From positions 2,404 through 38,022 of the forward strand of contig JAYODI010000003.1 in the NCBI GenBank assembly GCA_038279365.1: a stretch of DNA of 35,619 nucleotides, read 5' to 3'. This document shows, piece by piece, positions 1 through 16,573 of the stretch. How positions within the stretch are numbered: the stretch's first letter is position 1; every line of letters begins with the position of its first letter. A model generated the notes under the pieces. It was not told the origin of the DNA. It saw nothing but the letters and a program-made list of their open reading frames with translations, and made no database searches. This DNA comes from Candidatus Latescibacterota bacterium (lineage in GTDB: Bacteria; Latescibacterota; UBA2968). The translations under genes and the position numbers were made by a program.

Positions 1-185
1 ATGATGTTGTTGACGCCCAATGCTTTAAATTTTTCGAGGGCTTCGCGTTTGGCCCCTTCGCCAATGGCCAACATGGCAATGACAGCAGCCACACCAAAAA
101 TGACACCGAGCATGGTGAGAATGGAGCGCAAACGATGTTGCGACAGGCCCTCAAGGCCCATGCGCATGAGTTCGGCGCGATCCAT
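1..185 (-). CDS. MacB/FtsX-family ABC transporter permease, N-terminus (runs off the window edge)
   Basis: Not in the ORF track; translated by hand from ATG at 185: MDRAELMRMGLEGLSQHRLRSILTMLGVIFGVAAVIAMLAIGEGAKREALEKFKALGVNNII. This is the classic MacB TM1 signature (RSxLTMLGxxxGVAAVIAMLAIGxG). Its start overlaps the upstream stop (TAATG). No N-terminal NBD. Confidence 0.93.
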   Translation of the reverse strand, partial: MDRAELMRMGLEGLSQHRLRSILTMLGVIFGVAAVIAMLAIGEGAKREALEKFKALGVNNI

Positions 186-1354
186 TAGGTGGCCCCTCCA
201 AGCACAACCTGAGCACCGGGTTTGATGTCACCTTTGATGACCACATGATTCGCATTTCGTGGGCCAAGCGATACGGGCACGGGTGTCACGCCCCACATGT
301 TTTTGACATAAACCACATATTGGTTGTCTTTTTTTTGTATGCAGTCGTTGTTGACAAAAAGAGCGTTGTCAAAATCTGCAATAAGAAATTCGCAACTGAC
401 TGTCATACCTGGGCGCAACAAGTCGTGCGATTCTTTGAGCATGATTTCGACATCAAAAACTTTGCTCTTATCGTTTCTGTCTTTTTGACGCGAAATACGA
501 CTGATTTCGACTATTTGGCCTTCAAAAATAAATTTGGGAAAGGCATCGAGTTTTACCGTCACTTTTTGGTTTTTGTTGATTTTGTTAATGTCTGTTTCAT
601 TGATGGTGGTGTGGGCTTTCATGCTGCTTAAATCGGGAAGCCCCACAATGGGTGCGCCACTCCAGAGTTGATCTCCTATGGCCACCTTTTGGCGGGTTCG
701 TCCATTGTGACGGTATTCGATAATGCCGGGTGAAGAGGCGCGTAGGGTAAAGATTTCGAGTGTTCGGTTGGCATTGTCAATGTTGGATTCTATTTTTTGA
801 ATTTTGGCCAACTGTATGCTGAGTTCCTCGGCTTGTTGAATGCGCAGGCTTTCAAGCTGGCCTTGAAGTTTTTGAAGGGTGAGTTGTTTGGTTTTAAATT
901 CGAGAGTTTTGATGGTTTTGCTGGTTTGCGATTCAAAACGCACGCGTTGTTGGTTGATTTCGGCACGTGTAAGGGCAGATTGGGCACTTTGTATTTTGTT
1001 TAGAAGTTCTTTGGTTTTGCTGTCTTGCTGAATATTTAAGGTGTTGAGGTTGGCTTGTTCTATGGCCAGGGTGTTTTCTAAGCGACCACGTTCGGCAATG
1101 ACACCTGAAGGTTCAATTTCGCCCACCACACTTCCTTTTTGAACACGTGTGCCTTCGGGTTCAAGGTGTGATATTTTGGGGCGACCATATCGCCAAACGG
1201 CAGGCATAGAAATAATGGTATATTGCGCGGCTTGCAATTCACCTGTTTCTGTAAGTGTGGTCTTAAATTCACCTTGTTTGACGGTGGTATATGCGTTGTT
1301 GTCATCTGCACACGCACATAAAAAAATCAACAAAAGTAGGATGTTTTTTTTCAT
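185..1354 (-). CDS. MacA/HlyD-family periplasmic adaptor (membrane fusion protein), probable lipoprotein
   Basis: Signal with Cys (LLIFLCAC), lipoyl half motif EPEGTRVQKG, long coiled coil, RASSPGII, LPDLSSM, INETDI, LDAFP, LRPGMT, C-terminal membrane-proximal domain. Confidence 0.92.
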   Translation of the reverse strand: MKKNILLLLIFLCACADDNNAYTTVKQGEFKTTLTETGELQAAQYTIISMPAVWRYGRPKISHLEPEGTRVQKGSVVGEIEPSGVIAERGRLENTLAIEQANLNTLNIQQDSKTKELLNKIQSAQSALTRAEINQQRVRFESQTSKTIKTLEFKTKQLTLQKLQGQLESLRIQQAEELSIQLAKIQKIESNIDNANRTLEIFTLRASSPGIIEYRHNGRTRQKVAIGDQLWSGAPIVGLPDLSSMKAHTTINETDINKINKNQKVTVKLDAFPKFIFEGQIVEISRISRQKDRNDKSKVFDVEIMLKESHDLLRPGMTVSCEFLIADFDNALFVNNDCIQKKDNQYVVYVKNMWGVTPVPVSLGPRNANHVVIKGDIKPGAQVVLGGAT

Positions 1355-2568
1355 TGTGGGCTGCCTGTGGAGACCTGTTGGGTGGCGATGGTGGGGTTGG
1401 CAAGTGCGATGACATCACCAGAGCTAAGTCCTTCTTTAATGACCACGTGGGTATCGTTTTCGTCGCCAAGTGTGACGGGTTGAACAACAAACCCACTGCC
1501 CTTTTGGAGATAAACAATGGTTTTGTTGTCTTGCTCAAAGAGGGCTGCAATGGGAATGGCAATGACATTGGTCAATTCGTTGACGATGATGTCACAACTG
1601 ATGGTGAGCCCAGGCAAAAGGCGTTCGTCTTGGCCGTCTATGAGGACAACAACATCAAAAACTTTTACTTTTTCTTCGTTAGATTTGTTGTGTGCCAAGG
1701 TGGCTATTTCGATTATTTTGCCTGTAAAAGTGGTATCTTGGTAGGCATCGAGGGTGATGAGGGTTTTTTGGCCCAATGTGATTTTGGCAATATCAATTTC
1801 ATTAATTTGAACTTGGGCCTTCATTTCACTTAAATCTGGCAGACCAATCAGTGGGTTGCCCGGCCAGGTTTGGTCATCTACTTGGAATTTGTTGCGGGTG
1901 TAATTGTTTCGGCGAATGATGGAAATGCCAGGGGCTGGGGCGGTAACGGTGAGCATGGCAAGTGTGTTTTGGGCTTCGTCCAATTTGGCTTGTTCTTGCT
2001 TGACGCGCAGCTCAAGTTTGCTGATTTCTTCGTGTTGAATGTTTTTTTGGTTTTCAAGTTCTTGTTCGACTCTGTTAAGATTAATTGCTGCTTCTTCGAG
2101 GCTGAACTCGTCTTGTTTGCGGTCAATTTCGGCTTTGAATGAAGCTTGTTCGAGTTTGAGCGTTGTGATTTGATGGGTAATGCGTGCAATTTCCAGGTCT
2201 ATTTCTTTTGATTCGATATCCGATTTGTTTTTGGCTTGTGTTTTTCGCAATTCTGATTCGGCAATTTCCAAATTAGATTTGGCTTCATTGAGGGCTTTTT
2301 CGACTTCGCTTTTGTCAAATTGCACCAATAAGTCGTTTTCCTTAACGGGGGTACCATCATCTACGAGTTTGACGATTTTTAAATCGCCAAATCGCCAACT
2401 GATGGGGGGGGCCGAAATAAGTTTTGAGCGTACTGCTTCGAGCTCGCCGGTGACAGTGACCCGATTGAGAAAGTTGCCATTTGAAACAGTGTGTGTTTCT
2501 ACGGAAGTATTGGTTGTGGCACCGCAGGCGATAAACACACTTAAAAATATGTAAAACAGGCGATGCAT
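1351..2568 (-). CDS. MacA/HlyD-family periplasmic adaptor, probable lipoprotein
   Basis: Lipobox-like FIAC, DGTPVKEND, coiled coil, TAPAPG, LPDLSEM, INEIDI, LLPGLT, GLSSGD. ATGA overlap with the next gene. Confidence 0.92.
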   Translation of the reverse strand: MHRLFYIFLSVFIACGATTNTSVETHTVSNGNFLNRVTVTGELEAVRSKLISAPPISWRFGDLKIVKLVDDGTPVKENDLLVQFDKSEVEKALNEAKSNLEIAESELRKTQAKNKSDIESKEIDLEIARITHQITTLKLEQASFKAEIDRKQDEFSLEEAAINLNRVEQELENQKNIQHEEISKLELRVKQEQAKLDEAQNTLAMLTVTAPAPGISIIRRNNYTRNKFQVDDQTWPGNPLIGLPDLSEMKAQVQINEIDIAKITLGQKTLITLDAYQDTTFTGKIIEIATLAHNKSNEEKVKVFDVVVLIDGQDERLLPGLTISCDIIVNELTNVIAIPIAALFEQDNKTIVYLQKGSGFVVQPVTLGDENDTHVVIKEGLSSGDVIALANPTIATQQVSTGSPQ

Positions 2569-2585
2569 AACGACTCCAAAAAGGG

Positions 2586-3800
2586 TTAAGGATCTGTTTT
2601 GGGTGCATGTAAAGCCAATTGGGCACCTGCTTCAAGGTTGCCTTTGATGATGGCGTAGTTGGCGTTTTGATTTTCAAGCGTGACTGAACGGGGTTCAAAG
2701 CGATTGCCTGTTTGCACATAAACCACTTGCAGACTGTCTTGTTGAAAAATGCATTCTAATGGTGCAACGAGGCCTTCGGGGTGTTCGTCTACAGTAATGT
2801 GTACTTGAGTAGATAAACCAGGTATAAAATCTGATCGGGTGGTATCCAGTTCGACAACAACTTCTACTTGTTTGACTTTGGAGTTTTTCTGAATGGGTTG
2901 GGCGCGTTTGGCGACACTGGTAATTTTTCCTGTGACGTGTGCATTTTCTAAAGAAGATATATTGATTTTGGCCAATTGCCCCTTTTTGAGTTTTTGAGCC
3001 TGAATTTCGCCTACTTGAAGTTTGACCTGCATCACGGACAAATCTGGCAATTTGGCAATAAGCTCCCCGGGGTACATGGTATCGCCTTCTTGTGGTTTTT
3101 TTCCTCTCCATCGGTTATATTCGTGCACAACCACGCCATTGGTTGGCGCTTTGATAACGAGAGTTTCTAAGGCCTCTTCGGCTTGCTTGAGCTTGCGGGT
3201 GGCTTGTTGGATTTTGATTTGGACATGGGCACGTTCTTCTTTTTGTATGCCCTCAATGGCGGCGAGGCGTTTGCTGATTTTTTTTACGCGCAGTTCATTG
3301 CTTTGCATTTCAAGGCGTGTGATTTCTCTTAGGCGAGGGGCAATAAACTCGAGTTTGGCCAATTGGAGGCGCGAAATGGCTGCCGCTGCTTTGGCACTTT
3401 CCATATCGGCTTCGAGAATGAGGCGTTCGGCGGTGAGCTCGGCTTCTTTTTTTTCAGCGTCCGATTGGGCAATTTCTAAAGAACTGAGTGCATTGAGGCG
3501 GTCATTTTCAAAAGATTGCGGATCTAATTTGATGACGATGTCGTCTTTTTTTACCTTTTTCCCTTCGGGGGCCAAATAAATAATGGCAATTTGTCGCCAA
3601 TCTCTTGTTCGGGGCGTCATGAGGGCTTGCGAGTTTTTGGCTTCGAGAGGGCCTTCGGCATCTACGGTAATGGCAAAAGGTTTTTGGATGAGGGTATATG
3701 TGGGAATAGCATTTTGAGATGACCCGAAGGAACAGGCCATTTGTGAGAAACACAAGAGGTAAAAAAAGAGAGGGGAAATGCGCGGTGACAATAACAACAT
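2586..3800 (-). CDS. MacA/HlyD-family periplasmic adaptor
   Basis: APEGKKVKKDD, coiled coil, KAPTNGVV, LPDLSVM, FIPGLS. First gene of the cluster. Confidence 0.9.
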   Translation of the reverse strand: MLLLSPRISPLFFYLLCFSQMACSFGSSQNAIPTYTLIQKPFAITVDAEGPLEAKNSQALMTPRTRDWRQIAIIYLAPEGKKVKKDDIVIKLDPQSFENDRLNALSSLEIAQSDAEKKEAELTAERLILEADMESAKAAAAISRLQLAKLEFIAPRLREITRLEMQSNELRVKKISKRLAAIEGIQKEERAHVQIKIQQATRKLKQAEEALETLVIKAPTNGVVVHEYNRWRGKKPQEGDTMYPGELIAKLPDLSVMQVKLQVGEIQAQKLKKGQLAKINISSLENAHVTGKITSVAKRAQPIQKNSKVKQVEVVVELDTTRSDFIPGLSTQVHITVDEHPEGLVAPLECIFQQDSLQVVYVQTGNRFEPRSVTLENQNANYAIIKGNLEAGAQLALHAPKTDP

Positions 3801-3982
3801 GGGATTGGGATTCCTATGGGAAGAGGTTTTTATAGGCCCAAAAAATTGTCTCTCTTAAAGAAAGATAGGTATTATCGAATTTTAAATGTACCAAATGCGG
3901 TTTCGTTCCAAATTTTATCTATATTCTTAGACGCAGTGCAAACAAGAAGGTTACACGATTGTATAAAATAATGAATGGCGAT

Positions 3983-4492
3983 ATGAAATCAAGAATTTCT
4001 ATTTGGGGGTTTTTAATGGTTTTGGGGTTTGGCGGGTGTATGTTGCCCGACCCTATTCCTGAGGCACCTCAGCCTGTATATGACAGACCTCGTTTTGAAG
4101 ACTTTCCAGCTCATAAGATTTATAAGAGCAAACCACGCCCAGTAAACTTAGTGAGTCACCCACGCGCCTTGCGGTTTGAAGGGCGATTGGTTGAAGGGGC
4201 AAAGATGGGCCCCAATTATGCGGGAAATCAAACAATTATACGATGGGCTTGTGGCGAAGAGTGCCAACAATTTGCGGTAATTGATGCGATGACAGGCAGT
4301 GTGATCTTCGCACCTTTTGTTACGCATTTGGGCGTGCGGTTTCAGTTGGACAGTCGTTTGTTTATCGTCAATCCACCTGAAGCAGTTGATCGGGCAGCGC
4401 GTGAGGGCAAACCGAAATCGTATTATCGCACGGTTTATTATGTGTGGCACTTTGGGCGGTTTGTCGAGGTTTTTTCGGAAAATTATGAATAA
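3983..4492 (+). CDS. Conserved hypothetical lipoprotein
   Basis: MKSRISIWGFLMVLGFGGC lipoprotein-like signal; motifs PRFEDFPA, GPNYAG..W.CGEEC and FQLDSRLFIVNP. ATG at 3971 is an alternative start. Confidence 0.75.
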   Translation: MKSRISIWGFLMVLGFGGCMLPDPIPEAPQPVYDRPRFEDFPAHKIYKSKPRPVNLVSHPRALRFEGRLVEGAKMGPNYAGNQTIIRWACGEECQQFAVIDAMTGSVIFAPFVTHLGVRFQLDSRLFIVNPPEAVDRAAREGKPKSYYRTVYYVWHFGRFVEVFSENYE

Positions 4493-4507: not shown

Positions 4508-5224
4508 TTAGAGGCGATGTGTTTCACTTCGTCCATCGGCAGTGTTGACTATCCATTGAAGATGGTCTTTGTGGCCTTTAAGAATGGGGATGGCTAAGGG
4601 TGTGAGGGCATGTTTTTGTAAATGGGTTTGCAATGTTTTGAGGCGTGCATTGACGGTTTGGGCAATAAGCAAAACGCCTTTAGAATCGTTTTGGATGTGT
4701 TGCTGGGGCAAAAGGTCTGCGCGTGCAATGAGGTGCTGGGCAATAAGATGACGCGATAAGGTTTCTGCCTCTGTTTGAGAGGGCATAGACAGGGCAACCA
4801 CATAAGGCGCATTTTTTTGGGCATCATGGACATCTGTGATGTTTTTATTTTGGGGGCCATTCTTTTTTTCGTCGTATTTTTTGAGTATAACCTGCAATAT
4901 GAGCAAGGTCACACAAATGCCCAAGCCGATGAAAAAAATGTTTTTGATTTTTGTTACGATAGATGTTTTTGTGAGCGTGTCGTTTTGGGATAGATTTTGT
5001 GACTCCGGTTGCGAAATAGCATAGGTTGCCGATAGGTGATCGGCTATGCGTCGGACCTGCTGTTCCATTTGGGGGGAGACACGGCTGTTGGGGTCTGTGA
5101 GTGCCAGATCTGTTGTGTTGGCAATAAGTTTGCGGGCCACATTGGCAATTTGTGTTTGTTGGTCTTGTGCAGATAAACTTGTGCAGAAGAACGTGACCAA
5201 CAGTGCTGTGAGAAAATATTTCAT
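4508..5224 (-). CDS. Membrane protein: signal peptide, helical exported domain, TM helix, degenerate CutA-like C-terminal domain
   Basis: Start moved to ATG 5224 (taaggccacc-ATG; MKYFLTALLVTFFCTSLSA signal). TM IFFIGLGICVTLLILQVIL followed by KKYDEKK. C-terminus VVALSMPSQTEAETLSRHLIAQHL..VLLIAQT..LAIPILKGHKDHLQWI follows the CutA pattern. Confidence 0.75.
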   Translation of the reverse strand: MKYFLTALLVTFFCTSLSAQDQQTQIANVARKLIANTTDLALTDPNSRVSPQMEQQVRRIADHLSATYAISQPESQNLSQNDTLTKTSIVTKIKNIFFIGLGICVTLLILQVILKKYDEKKNGPQNKNITDVHDAQKNAPYVVALSMPSQTEAETLSRHLIAQHLIARADLLPQQHIQNDSKGVLLIAQTVNARLKTLQTHLQKHALTPLAIPILKGHKDHLQWIVNTADGRSETHRL

Positions 5225-5231
5225 GGTGGCC

Positions 5232-5897
5232 TTATGGAATAATGGAGCGTGAGAGGGCAATAATTTCGGGAGCACCAATATCAGCGGTTTCTGTTTGCGT
5301 GATGATGTTTGGTAGATGTTGGTTGGTGGTTTTGAGCATGAGCATGGCTTCAGGCGTGACATAGGCTTTGTCGTCTTTTCGATAAAGCGATTGTAACGTG
5401 GGCGTGACGCTCCCTCCTGTGGCCCAATTTTGATCGATGATTTGTTTGCCCAAAGCAAGGGCTTGTTCGGTGGTGCTTGTGGTGATCATAACGCCAATGG
5501 GTGTATTGGGGCTTTCTAATTTGGTACCTCGACCAATTGCCTTGATAATGGCGCGTAAGACCAATAAGGCAACTATAATGGCAATGCCTTTGGATACATT
5601 GAGAACGATGGTTTTGACGAGGTTTTTGTTTTCTTGCCGTGTGTGGTTGATTTGGTTTTGCTCTGCTTGAACCACGTTGGCTTCTTGGATAAGTTGTTGA
5701 GAAATTTGTGTGATGAGTGTTTCTTGCTCTGGTGTGAGTGTTTCTTGGTTTGGCCCCACAATGCCTTTGGTGACATGGCGCACAATGCGGGTGATGCTGG
5801 CCACTTGGTCTTCGTTTATTTTGGGGGAGGCGGTTTCTTGTGCGTGCAGTGGTTGGATGTTGAGTGTGGATAAGAAGATGAGAATGAGGAAGGGCAT
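5232..5897 (-). CDS. Membrane protein: signal peptide, helical exported domain, TM helix, CutA-like C-terminal domain
   Basis: Start moved to ATG 5897 (AGGA RBS; MPFLILIFLSTLNIQPLHA). TM GIAIIVALLVLRAII. C-terminus VMITTSTTEQALALGKQII..LQSLYRKDD..EAMLMLKTT..PEIIAL matches CutA. Confidence 0.8.
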   Translation of the reverse strand: MPFLILIFLSTLNIQPLHAQETASPKINEDQVASITRIVRHVTKGIVGPNQETLTPEQETLITQISQQLIQEANVVQAEQNQINHTRQENKNLVKTIVLNVSKGIAIIVALLVLRAIIKAIGRGTKLESPNTPIGVMITTSTTEQALALGKQIIDQNWATGGSVTPTLQSLYRKDDKAYVTPEAMLMLKTTNQHLPNIITQTETADIGAPEIIALSRSIIP

Positions 5898-5952
5898 GAG
5901 ATGTGTTCCTTCTGGATGTGCGATATTTTTCATGTCAATGAGGTATATGGAC

Positions 5953-5981
5953 AATATATTTCTGTTGGCTTGGTTTTGCAA
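5953..5981 (-). promoter_or_regulatory. Putative sigma70-type promoter for the CutA-like pair
   Basis: Minus strand TTGCAA-17 bp-TATATT, about 55 nt upstream of ATG 5897. Confidence 0.45.
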
Positions 5982-6005: not shown

Positions 6006-7091
6006 TTGGAAACATTAGGGTTAGATATTGACAAGTTAAACTTAGCAGAGCAAGTGTTGGCAGGTCACATTGCCCAAAAAACGACACCCGGTGCCGTGGG
6101 ATTGGTTGTGCGTCGTGCTGGTGTGGCTATGCGTTGGGCCGTTGGGAAACATACGTATGACTTGAATGCACCCCCTGTTTTGTTGCAGGATATCTTTGAT
6201 TTGGCATCTGTGACCAAAACGGTTGTGACAACGACACTGTGTGCTATGTTTGTCGATTTGGGCAAGTTGGATTTGGATGCACCCGTACAGCAGTATGTGC
6301 CAAGGTTTTTAGGAGATGGAAAAGCCCAAGTGACCGCACGATATTTGTTGGCCCATTGTGGTGGGTTGCCCGCACATGTGCATTTATACAAACAATATGC
6401 TGGGCGCGATGCTATTTTAAATGCGGTATGTGATTTGGAATTGGCCTATCAACCAGGGATGGAGACGGCTTATAGTGACATGGGGTTTTTGTTGTTGGGG
6501 ATGGTCTTGGAAACCATAGGTGGGGAGCGCTTAGATATATTGGCACAGAAACTTGTCTTTGATCCTTTAAACATGAGCGATGCGTGTTATTGCCCCAGTG
6601 TGGATCTAAAGCCTCGCATTTTGCCAACAGAGACAAAAACGAATTTGCGAAATGGGTTGGTGTGGGGAGAGGTCCACGACGAAAATGCCGCCGCAATGGG
6701 GGGAATTGCTTCACATGCGGGTGTATTTGCCACTGCAGATGATTTGGCAAGGCTGTTGCAGATGTGGCTGTGTGGTGGGGTGTTTGACGGAAGGTGTATT
6801 TTATCTGAGGCGGTTGTGGCGAAATTTACGCAGCGCGCACATTTGGCACCAAACAGTACGTGGGCGTTGGGGTGGGATACGGTATCGGCAGGAGGCAGTT
6901 CAACTGGGCGTTATTTTTCGGAACGATCTTTTGGTTCATTGGGTTTTACGGGTACGTCTATCTGGGCAGATCCCGACCGCGATTTGGGTGTGGTGTTGCT
7001 TACCAATCGGGTGCATCCGACACGTGATAATTGGCAGATTAAAGCGCTACGTCCCGAATTTCACAATGCCGTGTCTGAAGCTTTGGTTTGA
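6006..7091 (+). CDS. Beta-lactamase-fold serine hydrolase (class C-like / AmiE-like esterase-amidase), no signal peptide
   Basis: FDLASVTK (SxxK), LLAHCGGLP, YSDMG, GEVHDENA, HAGVF, GFTGTSIWADP, LLTNRVHP. TTG start uncertain. Confidence 0.9.
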   Translation: METLGLDIDKLNLAEQVLAGHIAQKTTPGAVGLVVRRAGVAMRWAVGKHTYDLNAPPVLLQDIFDLASVTKTVVTTTLCAMFVDLGKLDLDAPVQQYVPRFLGDGKAQVTARYLLAHCGGLPAHVHLYKQYAGRDAILNAVCDLELAYQPGMETAYSDMGFLLLGMVLETIGGERLDILAQKLVFDPLNMSDACYCPSVDLKPRILPTETKTNLRNGLVWGEVHDENAAAMGGIASHAGVFATADDLARLLQMWLCGGVFDGRCILSEAVVAKFTQRAHLAPNSTWALGWDTVSAGGSSTGRYFSERSFGSLGFTGTSIWADPDRDLGVVLLTNRVHPTRDNWQIKALRPEFHNAVSEALV

Positions 7092-7147: not shown

Positions 7148-7861
7148 TCATTCGTCTTTACTGTGTTTTTCATGTGACGCATCAAAATCTACAATATTTG
7201 TTTCTCCCACATATGATTTTGCAATATATGTTTCTGCTTTTAACATTTTTTGTATGATGGTATGCACACGTTGACTGCTTTCAAAAATTAATTGCAGGTC
7301 ATCAATGATATCTGTGGGTAAGTCGGTGCGTTTAGAGAGTAACTCTGATAACCCCAAAATGGCTGTAAGGGGTTGGTTAATTTCATGGGCGACTGCACCT
7401 GCTGTTTCTATGAGAACTTTGTTGCGTTCGGTTTGAAGCAGTTGTTTTTGGAGGGCCTCAACTTGCAATTCGGCCAATTTGCGTTGGGTCATGTTGATGT
7501 GAGAAGTGATGGCCCCAATGATTTGGGTGGTGTGATTGATAAGCGGGGTCACATAAAGCCAAAACCAACGTTCTTCTGTAGGCGAATGACAAGGATATTC
7601 ATATGAATAATGTGACAGGTTGCCGTTGAGTACGGATCGAATGCCTGCCTCAATTTCTGTGCCTTTAATCGTATTAAAGTAATTTTCATTTAGGCCATAG
7701 TTTGGGTCTGGATAAGCATTGGCTTGAGCAAAGTTTTTCCATGCTTGGTTAACAAAGATAATTTTGCCAGAAAGGTTGATGATGGCAATGTGTTCGTATA
7801 ATGCATCTAAGACGGTTTCATCGGAGTGAGATGCAGTGCGCGTGTGTTGTAATGTGGTCAT
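7148..7861 (-). CDS. PAS-domain protein with histidine-kinase DHp (HisKA) domain but no HATPase domain
   Basis: PAS_4-like (IIFVNQAW..G.NY..EYPCHSPTEERWF), coiled linker, H-box AHEINQPL. Ends about 80 aa after the His with no N/G1/G2 boxes. Confidence 0.85.
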   Translation of the reverse strand: MTTLQHTRTASHSDETVLDALYEHIAIINLSGKIIFVNQAWKNFAQANAYPDPNYGLNENYFNTIKGTEIEAGIRSVLNGNLSHYSYEYPCHSPTEERWFWLYVTPLINHTTQIIGAITSHINMTQRKLAELQVEALQKQLLQTERNKVLIETAGAVAHEINQPLTAILGLSELLSKRTDLPTDIIDDLQLIFESSQRVHTIIQKMLKAETYIAKSYVGETNIVDFDASHEKHSKDE

Positions 7862-15374: not shown

Positions 15375-15914
15375 TTACTGCCAGCGTAGTGTGGTGGTGC
15401 CACGCATTTGCCATACGCGGCGTGGTGGGTTAGAAACGATGGTGACTGAACACGCGAGGTGGATCGGAAGGGGAGAGTGAAGTTGTTGTCGTGGGGTTAG
15501 CAAAACAGTGGCAATATGTCCTGTACTGGGCAAGGGCGCAAATTCGAGGCGATTGTTGTAATACGATATGGTTTGGCTATTTGATGTTTGTTTGAGGGGT
15601 TGTTGACGCCAATCGGTTACGGATAGAATTTGGAATGAGCGGGTTAAAGAACTGTCTGGGTTGGAAAATGTAATGGCATATTCAAACCCCAGTAAGCTGG
15701 CACAACGCGGGATAAATATTTGAAGGCTTAAGTTTTCACCTCGTTGAGGCACTGTTGCTGTGGTGATGCCATTGTTTATGGCAGGGTTTTCGGCAATGGT
15801 ATCAAGCTGTACGTTTTCGTCGGTTGTGAATATTTGGAGGTCGGGTAAATGGCGTTGGGCAAAAAGAGGATGTGTGAAGATGAGAAGGGTGAGGCAGATA
15901 AGATATTTTTTCAT
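15375..15914 (-). CDS. Secreted hypothetical beta-sandwich protein (possibly cohesin-like)
   Basis: Signal [19 protein letters not shown]; alternating beta-strand pattern; ATGA overlap with the upstream REC gene. Confidence 0.65.
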   Translation of the reverse strand: MKKYLICLTLLIFTHPLFAQRHLPDLQIFTTDENVQLDTIAENPAINNGITTATVPQRGENLSLQIFIPRCASLLGFEYAITFSNPDSSLTRSFQILSVTDWRQQPLKQTSNSQTISYYNNRLEFAPLPSTGHIATVLLTPRQQLHSPLPIHLACSVTIVSNPPRRVWQMRGTTTLRWQ

Positions 15915-16573
15915 TGTGTTTCAGATGCGGCATTGATATCGATGATTTCGATACCTTCTATATAAGGTTTGGTGACATATTGTCGAATTTGTGCCATTTT
16001 TTTGACAATTTCAGATATTTTTCGTGCCGATTCATGCAACGCCTGAATGTTTTCCAGATGTGGACTGTTGGTGTCTATTTGGAACATGAGCAATTCTGCC
16101 ATGCCAATGAGTACGGTGAGGGGTTGGTTGATTTCGTGGGCGGCTGCACCAGCAGCTTGGGTCAGTACGCGATTGCGTTCGGCCTCCATGAGACGGTTTT
16201 GTAATTCGATAACACGTTCACCCACGCGAATGCGTGCTTGGAGTTCTTCTGGGTTAAATGGCTTCGCAATATAATCATTTGCTCCTGCGCTGAGACCTTC
16301 TACAATGTCGTTTTTTGCTGTTTTTGCAGTGAGTAAGATGATGTATGCCAATTCTCCATGTGGCAATTGGCGCACGCGCCGACACAATTCGACACCGTCT
16401 ATGTAGGGCATCATCCAATCGAGAATGGCCAAAGAAGGTGCGTCTTTATTTTGAAAGACCTCCCATGCTTCTTGACCATTTTGGGTGGCGATGATTTCGT
16501 GCCCCCATTTGGAAAGATTGGCTTGTAAAATACGGCTGTTTATGGGGTCATCTTCTGCAATTAATATTTTCAT
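15911..16573 (-). CDS. Response regulator receiver fused to a DHp (HisKA) domain, without HATPase
   Basis: ILIAEDD, LDWMMP, LTAK, AKPF, then H-box AHEINQPL; protein ends with no ATP-binding boxes. Confidence 0.88.

Follow-up and report, generated by a model that had tools for sequence, protein, structure and literature searches.

Tandem membrane-anchored CutA paralogs with complementary losses occupy the canonical cutA locus in a lineage of Latescibacterota

In the present study, we analysed a stretch of 35,619 nucleotides (nt) from Candidatus Latescibacterota bacterium (assembly GCA_038279365.1, contig JAYODI010000003.1, positions 2,404 to 38,022), referred to here as the window, and focused on two adjacent genes, A and B, that encode divergent CutA paralogs with a membrane anchor. 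CutA proteins are found across the domains of life, are highly stable, and have had their structure solved many times; they resemble PII proteins and bind small molecules and copper, but there is no agreement on what they do, a question that has been open for some 30 years. Our results suggested that A and B form a hetero-oligomeric CutA that is tethered under the inner membrane and does CutA's job there, and we give this reading a probability of slightly less than 0.6. New here are an anchor that derives from FliF, the position of the pair in place of canonical cutA, and a wider family of about 27 clusters that includes a fused form. Full-text literature searches found no description of a bacterial membrane-anchored CutA or of a CutA heteromer, in line with the initial impression that this architecture is undescribed in bacteria.

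Both genes lie on the minus strand and are separated by a spacer of 7 nt (5225-5231), as the original prediction had it. The genes and their parts are as follows, with coordinates of the window.

5232..5897, minus strand: gene A (open reading frame (ORF) and translation, 221 residues), a membrane-tethered CutA paralog without the C-terminal helix.
4508..5224, minus strand: gene B (ORF and translation, 238 residues), a membrane-tethered CutA paralog with a short hairpin and the C-terminal helix kept.
5838..5897, minus strand: A residues 1-20, signal-peptide-like hydrophobic N-terminus ending in ...PLHA before QE (hydropathy maximum 2.83).
5613..5837, minus strand: A residues 21-95, predicted exported helical region, in which the motifs I-x-R-I-V-R-H-V and L-T-x-E-Q are conserved.
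5514..5690, minus strand: A residues 70-128, a stretch homologous to the second transmembrane (TM) region of FliF that takes in the juxtamembrane linker, the TM helix and the first residues on the cytoplasmic side.
5532..5612, minus strand: A residues ~96-122, predicted TM helix (NVSKGIAIIVALLVLRAIIKAIG; Kyte-Doolittle 19-residue windows, up to 2.36).
5235..5507, minus strand: A residues 131-221, predicted cytoplasmic CutA domain (beta-alpha-beta-beta-alpha-beta) without alpha3 (AlphaFold2, VIA, profile match).
5168..5224, minus strand: B residues 1-19, signal-peptide-like N-terminus (MKYFLTALLVTFFCTSLSA before QD; heuristic pattern for signal peptides).
4880..4948, minus strand: B residues ~93-115, predicted TM helix followed by KKYDEKKNG (hydropathy 2.79; Lys/Arg before and after the helix, 3/4).
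4535..4813, minus strand: B residues 138-230, predicted cytoplasmic CutA domain in which the hairpin is short, LIARAD replaces LAACAN and alpha3 (GHKDHLQWI) is present (VIA, profile match, alignment).

The stretch between the signal-like segment and the TM helix comprises about 75 helical residues in A and in B. The two proteins were 22% identical by BLASTP (E 8e-6), and a profile-profile alignment joined them with 98.0% probability (E 2e-13) over 189 columns starting at residue 1. These results indicated that A and B are paralogous along their full length and not in the CutA part alone, which bears out the suspected kinship of the exported parts. Orthologs of A in the same genus begin at the position equivalent to 5897; a possible alternative start lies at 5933 (MKNIAH...), as in the 233-residue cluster representative P0003. 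The N-terminal segment of A orthologs ends in AQA before QE or in AEG before Q. For the exported part of A, AlphaFold2 gave helices at residues 29-46 and 56-124 with predicted local distance difference test (pLDDT) values of 50-74. For residues 21-95, Pfam recognised nothing beyond CutA1 in A, and an ESM Atlas search with residues 21-128 returned no usable match.

To assign the C-terminal domains, we combined profile searches with structure prediction. Against the Pfam family CutA1 (PF03091, gathering cut-off 22.4 bits), A scored 37.6 bits (E 2e-9; residues 136-215 on profile positions 3-83 of 99) and B scored 23.9 bits (E 3.8e-5; residues 142-226 on positions 2-97 of 99). CutA1 is the one Pfam family found in each protein, above the cut-off in both. 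The NCBIfam CutA equivalogs gave 17.3 (A) and 15.1 bits (B) for NF007930, whose cut-off is 145 bits, and 14.7 and 16.6 bits for NF041095, whose cut-off is 120 bits. These cut-offs were missed by far, which suggests that A and B are divergent members of the family and not ordinary cutA genes. AlphaFold2 models were built on family alignments of 25 rows (A) and 24 rows (B). The CutA-type domain of A was modelled with confidence (pLDDT of at least 90 for residues 131-200), with a long hairpin (strands 159-174 and 177-191) and no helix beyond the last strand. The B model shared this core; its hairpin strands were short (168-173 and 184-191), and it had a helix at the C-terminal end (219-229). The top Foldseek matches listed from the PDB were all CutA1 or CutA-derived designs for both models. 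In VIA-align, the A model matched E. coli CutA with a Z of 13.4 and a root-mean-square deviation of 2.2, with 91 residues aligned to residues 9-100; for the B model, Z was 13.2 and the deviation 1.8, with 93 of 104 residues aligned to residues 9-112. The Z values to CutA1 structures were 13.0-13.6 for A and 13-14.1 for B, against about 8-10 for GlnK, PII, CPII and SbtB. Against CutA1 of T. thermophilus (1NZA), the A family profile gave E 1e-19 and covered residues 5-88 of 103, and the B profile matched residues 4-98 (E 2.1e-9), opening gaps of 4+2 within the hairpin and one of 4 ahead of the last strand. The C-terminal domains of A and B are thus modelled with a CutA fold, and here Pfam, AlphaFold2, Foldseek and VIA agree with what had been predicted from the sequence.

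A search of the phylum with the A profile also matched, over about positions 67-132 of the profile, the inside of ORFs of about 505-540 residues in many genomes, including the source genome. The FliF of the source genome (L043:3848-5383, G000:C14; 511 residues; PF01514 and PF08345) is encoded between a FliE gene and a FliH-like gene. Residues 70-128 of A were identical to residues 394-448 of this FliF at 34/59 positions (58%; BLASTP, E 1e-13). In FliF, the match takes in the second TM helix together with the linker between the last periplasmic domain and this helix, and the first residues on the cytoplasmic side. Profile-profile comparison of A with FliF by hhalign gave 99.2% (E 1.9e-19). An extension of the match into the CutA domain of A had low confidence in hhalign and was disregarded; hhalign gave no extension into the N-terminal helices of A, and a likeness of I-T-R-I-V-R-H-V to L-V-R-G-A-L-G is not claimed. 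The ring-building periplasmic domains of FliF are absent from A, in which Pfam finds CutA1 only, and so is the FliG-binding tail: the CutA domain follows ...GRGTKLES where FliF has ...GRGVAREEEIAMEA...PETPHEIILGRI. The TM helix of B had no significant match to FliF by BLASTP or hhalign (6.8%); B-type proteins of other lineages retain a FliF-like TM motif. A module of 38 residues was compared in 7 related genomes that carry both genes. The A modules were 55-87% identical to the FliF modules, and the third codon positions were 0.29-0.47 identical (0.39 for the A of the window). The low identity at third positions indicates that the likeness is held by selection at the protein level and not by recent gene conversion. 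These results suggested that the anchor of A was copied from the region around the second TM helix of FliF.

Topology was evaluated by hydropathy and charge rules, and signal cleavage by a crude small-x-small motif. Hydrophobic N-terminal segments were found in 20/20 A and 20/20 B orthologs, each of which also had a single strong internal TM segment, and the common layout that had been proposed (signal-like segment, exported helices, one TM helix, CutA domain) therefore holds across both sets by hydropathy. In 18/20 A and 18/20 B orthologs, Lys/Arg residues in the 12 positions after the TM helix equalled or outnumbered those before it. The cleavage motif was present in 17/20 A and 19/20 B orthologs, from which we infer signal-peptide cleavage in A and B. 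In FliF, the second TM helix runs from the periplasm to the cytoplasm and into the cytoplasmic FliG-binding tail; the homology of the A helix to it supports a cytoplasmic CutA domain in A besides hydropathy and charge. Together, these signals place the CutA domains of both proteins on the cytoplasmic side, where the original prediction had put them, and this placement holds with the N-terminal segment either removed or retained as a first TM helix.

We then aligned the domains of A and B with E. coli CutA and with the canonical CutA of relatives. The usual LAAC motif is replaced by WATG in A and by LIAR in B, with E. coli C39 becoming G in A and R in B, so the Cys is gone from both, as had been noticed. 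E. coli E59, E61 and E90 correspond to T, E and E in A, and to S, G and a gap in B. A keeps the S-L-Y-R hairpin and PEIIAL; its chain ends 6 residues past the last strand, and the C-terminal helix alpha3 with Y-L-x-W is absent in both the alignment and the model. B keeps alpha3 (helix 219-229, GHKDHLQWI, with H-L-Q-W), and its hairpin is about 9-11 residues shorter. Among the pocket and interface positions, A retains the Ser, the Tyr, E61 and E90, and has lost the hairpin Trp, the Tyr of H-x-Y, E59 and the LAAC Cys. In B, the hairpin S-x-Y-x-W, H-x-Y, the equivalents of E59, E61 and E90, and the LAAC Cys are all lost. For E. coli CutA, E59, E61 and E90 mutants were reported, in the 2025 pteridine study (PMC12685090), to rescue copper sensitivity more weakly. 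For Shewanella CutA1, the interface description in PMC3004244 has the conserved Tyr45, Trp47, Tyr81, Tyr98 and Trp101 locking the subunits at their interfaces. From these five interface aromatics, A retains the hairpin Tyr only and B the helix Trp only (in genus g5 also the helix Tyr). Each protein keeps different interface aromatics, and the two thus hold complementary halves of the subunit-locking cluster. Alignment and profiles therefore uphold the proposed complementary losses, with A lacking alpha3 and keeping the hairpin, and B the reverse.

For the conservation of the pair, 19 relatives were examined at 20 stretches (20 loci) surrounding their weak CutA matches. A full A-type gene was present in 18/19 relatives, and B lay directly downstream at a distance of 4-168 nt in 17/18; in the nineteenth relative (G007), the two genes lie on two short contigs, are cut at the contig ends and face each other. 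Whole-genome searches found full-length A (E 1e-81 or better) and full-length B (E 1.6e-71 or better) in 25/25 genomes of genera g1, g4 and g5, and by coordinates the two were in tandem in 24. In the remaining genome (G022), A and B are 3.4 Mb apart, both intact. At the A locus of that genome (L040:2663-3607, C1, ~0.23 Mb), two TIR-domain genes, one ThsB-like, occupy the expected place of B, and a 1-Cys peroxiredoxin stands upstream of A instead of the serine hydrolase described below. The ratio of nonsynonymous to synonymous substitution rates (dN/dS) within a genus was 0.20-0.27 for A and 0.14-0.22 for B, the frames were intact in 25/25 genomes, and the family-specific motifs were invariant among A and among B orthologs. 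In a tree of CutA domains, A (100/99) and B (100/100) were each monophyletic across the three genera; 13 of the 30 inner branches were unresolved, leaving the base of the tree open, and the rows canon_G029_g9 and canon_G011_g3 were disregarded as wrong ORFs with branch lengths above 4. The dN/dS values, co-retention, intact frames and supported clades indicated that the pair is conserved in related genomes and is not a set of decaying duplicates.

The CutA1 search gave 2 matches in the source genome (98.5% complete), both of them A and B, and the check for a separate canonical cutA in this genome accordingly found none. In families f1-f3, a CutA match was present in 56/56 genomes, of which 32 carried the membrane type, 24 the canonical type (~100-120 residues) and 0 both, the type being assigned from the range of the CutA profile match. 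The divergent neighbour of A is conserved.

6006..7091, plus strand: beta-lactamase-fold serine hydrolase (PF00144, E 8.8e-52).

Its best NCBIfam match was PBP4B-like, with 164.5 bits and below the cut-off of 385. An ortholog of this hydrolase (45-79% identity) adjoins canonical cutA in 20/20 loci and the membrane type in 21/25 loci, and the arrangement was divergent for both CutA types in the loci whose strands were checked. The shared neighbour marks the ancestral locus and makes the pair the positional counterpart of cutA. In this lineage, the membrane pair stands in for canonical CutA at the same locus.

To place the pair in a wider family, the A profile was searched against 1.84 billion cluster representatives. 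It matched 6723 proteins at E 0.001 or better, nearly all over the CutA domain alone; among the best 150, which were inspected, 27 extend beyond the CutA domain and 16 reach E 1e-30. The wider family shares a signal-like N-terminus, a short exported region, a conserved TM helix (NVAKGIAIVIALLVLRAIIGAIGRG) and a CutA domain, and its members are publicly annotated as 'CutA', as 'hypothetical' or not at all. Its proteins often end in a basic P-W-W-K-R tail; P/S-W-W-K/R-R-I/L tails were seen in P0047, P0050, P0052, P0053, P0055, P0058, P0060, P0061 and P0189 and at L044, L046 and L047. This basic aromatic tail, which outside g1, g4 and g5 is perhaps a membrane-interface anchor, is absent from the A and B of the window, and B ends in an invariant A-D-G-(K/R). 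The forms found make up a degeneration series: CutA proteins that are anchored singly and have a complete domain (G078, G079, P0056), tandem pairs with a complete A and a B already without the hairpin aromatics (G007, G080-G082), and the pairs of g1, g4 and g5, in which A too has lost alpha3. A fusion that joins a TM helix and an A-like CutA missing alpha3 to another CutA, which is complete, was found in P0048 and G077 (321-331 residues, with 321 in P0048); in G077:C2 the fusion (L047:2355-3317) is followed by a B-type gene (3326-3982). In 7/7 B-type rows the hairpin Tyr and Trp are missing and the helix Trp is kept. All B-type rows are already without the hairpin aromatics, so the degeneration of B appears older than that of A; this order is suggested by the distribution, the base of the tree being unresolved.

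The reading that we favour can be formulated as follows. A and B would each cross the inner membrane once, as type-I proteins with an exported N-terminus and a cytoplasmic C-terminus. The CutA domains of the two would assemble into a mixed oligomer, probably a trimer, at the inner face of the membrane. This arrangement would have arisen by tandem duplication followed by complementary degeneration of the two copies. B would first have lost the hairpin aromatics and the three pocket glutamates while keeping the C-terminal helix, to become a structural (pseudo-)subunit; A would later have lost the C-terminal helix and, as the ligand-competent subunit, would retain the Ser and Tyr of the hairpin along with two of these glutamates. 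Such passage from a homomer to an obligate heteromer by complementary degeneration is a route known from other protein rings. The complementary losses imply that neither protein is likely a complete CutA alone, and that the complex would have fewer, asymmetric clefts. Since the pair is the lineage's only CutA and sits at the ancestral cutA locus, it probably does CutA's job at the membrane and not in solution. A hetero-oligomer of A with B is argued for by their strict co-retention even when unlinked, by the complementary halves of the interface and by the natural fusion.

The complex of two A chains (residues 92-221) and one B chain (residues 88-238) was predicted with a 20-row alignment for each. 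The A2B prediction gave an interaction prediction score from aligned errors (ipSAE) of 0.60 (runs 0.53, 0.60 and 0.60), compared with 0.00 for the best of 3 controls, which lends weak support. The runs agreed in at least 83% of the contacts, and the partner pLDDT was at least 71. The pass mark is reached by 58/80 solved complexes and by 2/110 mismatched pairs, and an ipSAE of 0.60 or lower is given by only 7 of the 80 solved complexes and by both of the passing mismatches. In addition, metatranscriptome contigs of 160-194 nt matched A in 4 runs from 3 studies, and one contig of 175 nt spans the A/B junction (5085-5258), a weak hint of expression. Several points weigh against the hetero-oligomer and its role. 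The three-chain job with its own alignments differs from the calibration of the tool; CutA homotrimers have been solved, and the pass may therefore be family memory and not A-B binding; and only the A2B stoichiometry was scored, so that the prediction does not separate hetero- from homo-oligomers. The junction contig has only 27 nt on the coding side of A, and contigs from RNA libraries can derive from DNA. The A of the window fails the crude cleavage motif and, with a start at 5897, would lack a basic n-region. Having lost the hairpin Trp, the Tyr of H-x-Y and the E59 equivalent, A may not bind the canonical ligand. The tree supports no claim on a donor, on the direction of change between the canonical and the membrane type or on the number of switches, and the neighbourhood, annotated in the window and in the loci of 12 relatives, gives no pointer to a ligand or output. 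Of the heterotrimeric CutA-based membrane complex in the original prediction, the fold, the topology and the conservation stood; the hetero-oligomer itself is a genetic inference joined by the A2B score. A 'receptor-like' or 'signalling' role for the pair would be speculation.

The best-placed alternative, which we consider possible yet clearly the less probable, is that there are two separate membrane-tethered homotrimers, one of A and one of B, with different roles (for example, ligand-binding versus regulatory), the losses being independent specialisations. According to the structure titles and to PMC3004244, every solved CutA is a homotrimer. The single anchored CutA proteins with a complete domain indicate that the anchor needs no partner, A and B are unlinked in G022, and the complex prediction, which scored A2B, leaves room for this explanation. 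However, each copy is without part of the subunit-locking aromatic cluster, with no alpha3 in A and no hairpin in B; both genes are retained together in all 25 genomes; an A-like CutA is naturally fused to a second CutA; and B docks on A with a weak pass over controls that scored zero. These observations favour the mixed oligomer over separate homotrimers.

A bolder form of the mixed-oligomer reading is doubtful, and we regard it as improbable. It would make the pair an obligate asymmetric membrane-spanning CutA heterotrimer in which A and B supply one half each of the subunit-locking aromatics, so that only A-B interfaces have a working cleft, and in which the exported helices and the strongly conserved FliF-derived TM helix couple a periplasmic or membrane cue to the cleft or the reverse. 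In flagellated members the FliF helix would in addition dock to the MS-ring or to one of the many FliG-type rotor paralogs that these genomes carry, and CutA would thus be a membrane-embedded signalling module.

A flagellar accessory role, in which the FliF-like helix of A packs in or beside the TM belt of the MS-ring and the CutA domain serves as a sensor near the rotor or export gate, seems slightly less credible still. The close likeness of A residues 70-128 to FliF of the same genome, kept at the amino-acid level while the third codon positions diverged, speaks for it. The A/FliF module identity was slightly higher within a genome than across genomes (0.726 vs 0.685; permutation p 0.0096), an effect that is small and comes from 7 kin genomes. 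A precedent is FlgV of H. pylori, a small protein that PMC10655999 describes as modelled against the C-terminal TM helix of FliF. However, FliF was found in 0/21 genomes of g5 (mostly closed, 91-99% complete), and A and B were found in 21/21. No flagellar genes were found near the pair, either in the window or in the annotated loci of 12 relatives; A has neither the FliG-binding tail nor the ring-building domains, and the TM helix of B is not FliF-like. The module also occurs in other small proteins. A 177-residue 'mini-FliF' (L068:239-772; G080:C1, ~5.97 Mb), separate from the full-length fliF of that genome, combines a signal peptide with the end of the FliF periplasmic region, its second TM helix and a tail resembling the FliG-binding one. 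Another carrier of the FliF-type TM module, a small exported protein (L069:351-932, minus strand; G003:C1, ~5.98 Mb), has a beta-rich N-terminal part and a short cytoplasmic coiled-coil, in a genome that carries canonical CutA. The presence of a FliF-type module in several small proteins reads as a portable anchor of FliF origin. As for the flagellar genes of the source genome, fliF is directly followed by the FliH-like gene (477 residues) with no fliG between, and there are 8 FliG_C (PF01706) matches above the cut-off, in frames of 143-692 residues on contigs C31, C194, C118, C26, C191 (two), C17 and C48, alongside a single FliF.

It is very improbable that the two copies are duplicates in decay, or that the topology is reversed and the CutA domains lie in the periplasm: both proteins miss canonical CutA motifs and the NCBIfam cut-offs (at best 17.3 vs 145 and 16.6 vs 120), and old database names call CutA 'periplasmic', but the dN/dS of 0.14-0.27, the intact frames and the invariant family motifs oppose decay, while a signal-like segment with one TM helix puts the C-terminus inside, in agreement with the Lys/Arg rule and the orientation of the second TM helix of FliF.

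The surroundings of the pair were also annotated. One promoter-like site precedes gene A.

5953..5981, minus strand: promoter-like site TTGCAA-17-TATATT upstream of gene A (consensus scan only, 9/12 matches).

The scan of the region gave 6 sites, compared with 2.3 expected. Apart from the hydrolase, the neighbours vary among the loci and include HlyD-like genes, a sulfatase, DXP synthase, glucokinase/ROK and peroxiredoxin. A 177-residue gene at 3959-4492 (plus strand) is convergent with B and has a signal- or lipoprotein-like N-terminus; it matched no Pfam or NCBIfam family and, among the loci compared, was seen only in those of the same genus (77-79% identity). Downstream of the locus, at 185-3800 (minus strand), there is a tandem of three HlyD-type membrane-fusion genes. 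At 7148-7861 and 15911-16573 (both minus strand), sensor-like proteins are encoded that have HisKA without a HATPase_c match, one as PAS-HisKA and one as receiver-HisKA. Lastly, 16 DNA runs were listed as candidate carriers, with the labels estuary, marine and salt-marsh, from which no habitat claim is drawn.

The replacement amounts to a natural experiment, in which a lineage swapped a soluble CutA, at the same locus, for a tethered two-subunit form with one subunit lacking the pocket residues. If A and B do form a mixed oligomer, CutA's job can, and perhaps normally does, happen at the inner face of the membrane, and fewer than three clefts suffice; the pair would also be a clean case of a homomer turned into an obligate heteromer through complementary degeneration. 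The reuse of a FliF TM helix as a portable anchor represents module shuffling from a core protein of the flagellum.

The closest known system is canonical CutA1 (PF03091; E. coli 1NAQ/3X3U, T. thermophilus 1NZA), which has the same fold as the C-terminal ~90-100 residues of A and B. A keeps its S-x-Y, E61, K-T and P-E positions, B keeps its G-x-x-x-(Y/H)-L-x-W helix, and the pair sits at the same genomic locus as the canonical cutA of relatives. Canonical CutA, however, is a soluble homotrimer of 100-115 residues with a single complete domain, whereas the proteins described here are 221 and 238 residues long and also carry a signal-like N-terminus, an exported region and a TM helix, and the domain is divided between two paralogs, with alpha3 missing in A and the hairpin, the pocket glutamates and the LAAC Cys missing in B. 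The 2025 study (PMC12685090) likewise treats CutA as cytoplasmic and trimeric, and proposes there that pteridines bind the intersubunit cleft and modulate copper binding. With FliF, A shares the second TM region (residues 70-128) and not the ring domains or the FliG-binding tail. PII and PII-like proteins such as GlnK and SbtB have a related trimeric ferredoxin-like fold, as reflected in the lower VIA scores. GlnK acts on the membrane transporter AmtB. SbtB, according to PMC9974498, acts on the transporter SbtA. Both work at the inner face of the membrane, as proposed for the pair, but they are soluble and dock reversibly through the T-loop, whereas A and B have no T-loop and would be tethered covalently by their own TM helices. 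Finally, mammalian CutA has a secretory-pathway isoform linked to acetylcholinesterase anchoring, as stated in PMC3004244 and in a title cited in PMC12685090, and is likewise routed to the membrane system and not free in the cytosol; there, a single complete gene yields a lumenal or extracellular domain, in contrast to the predicted cytoplasmic domains of this bacterial two-gene system.

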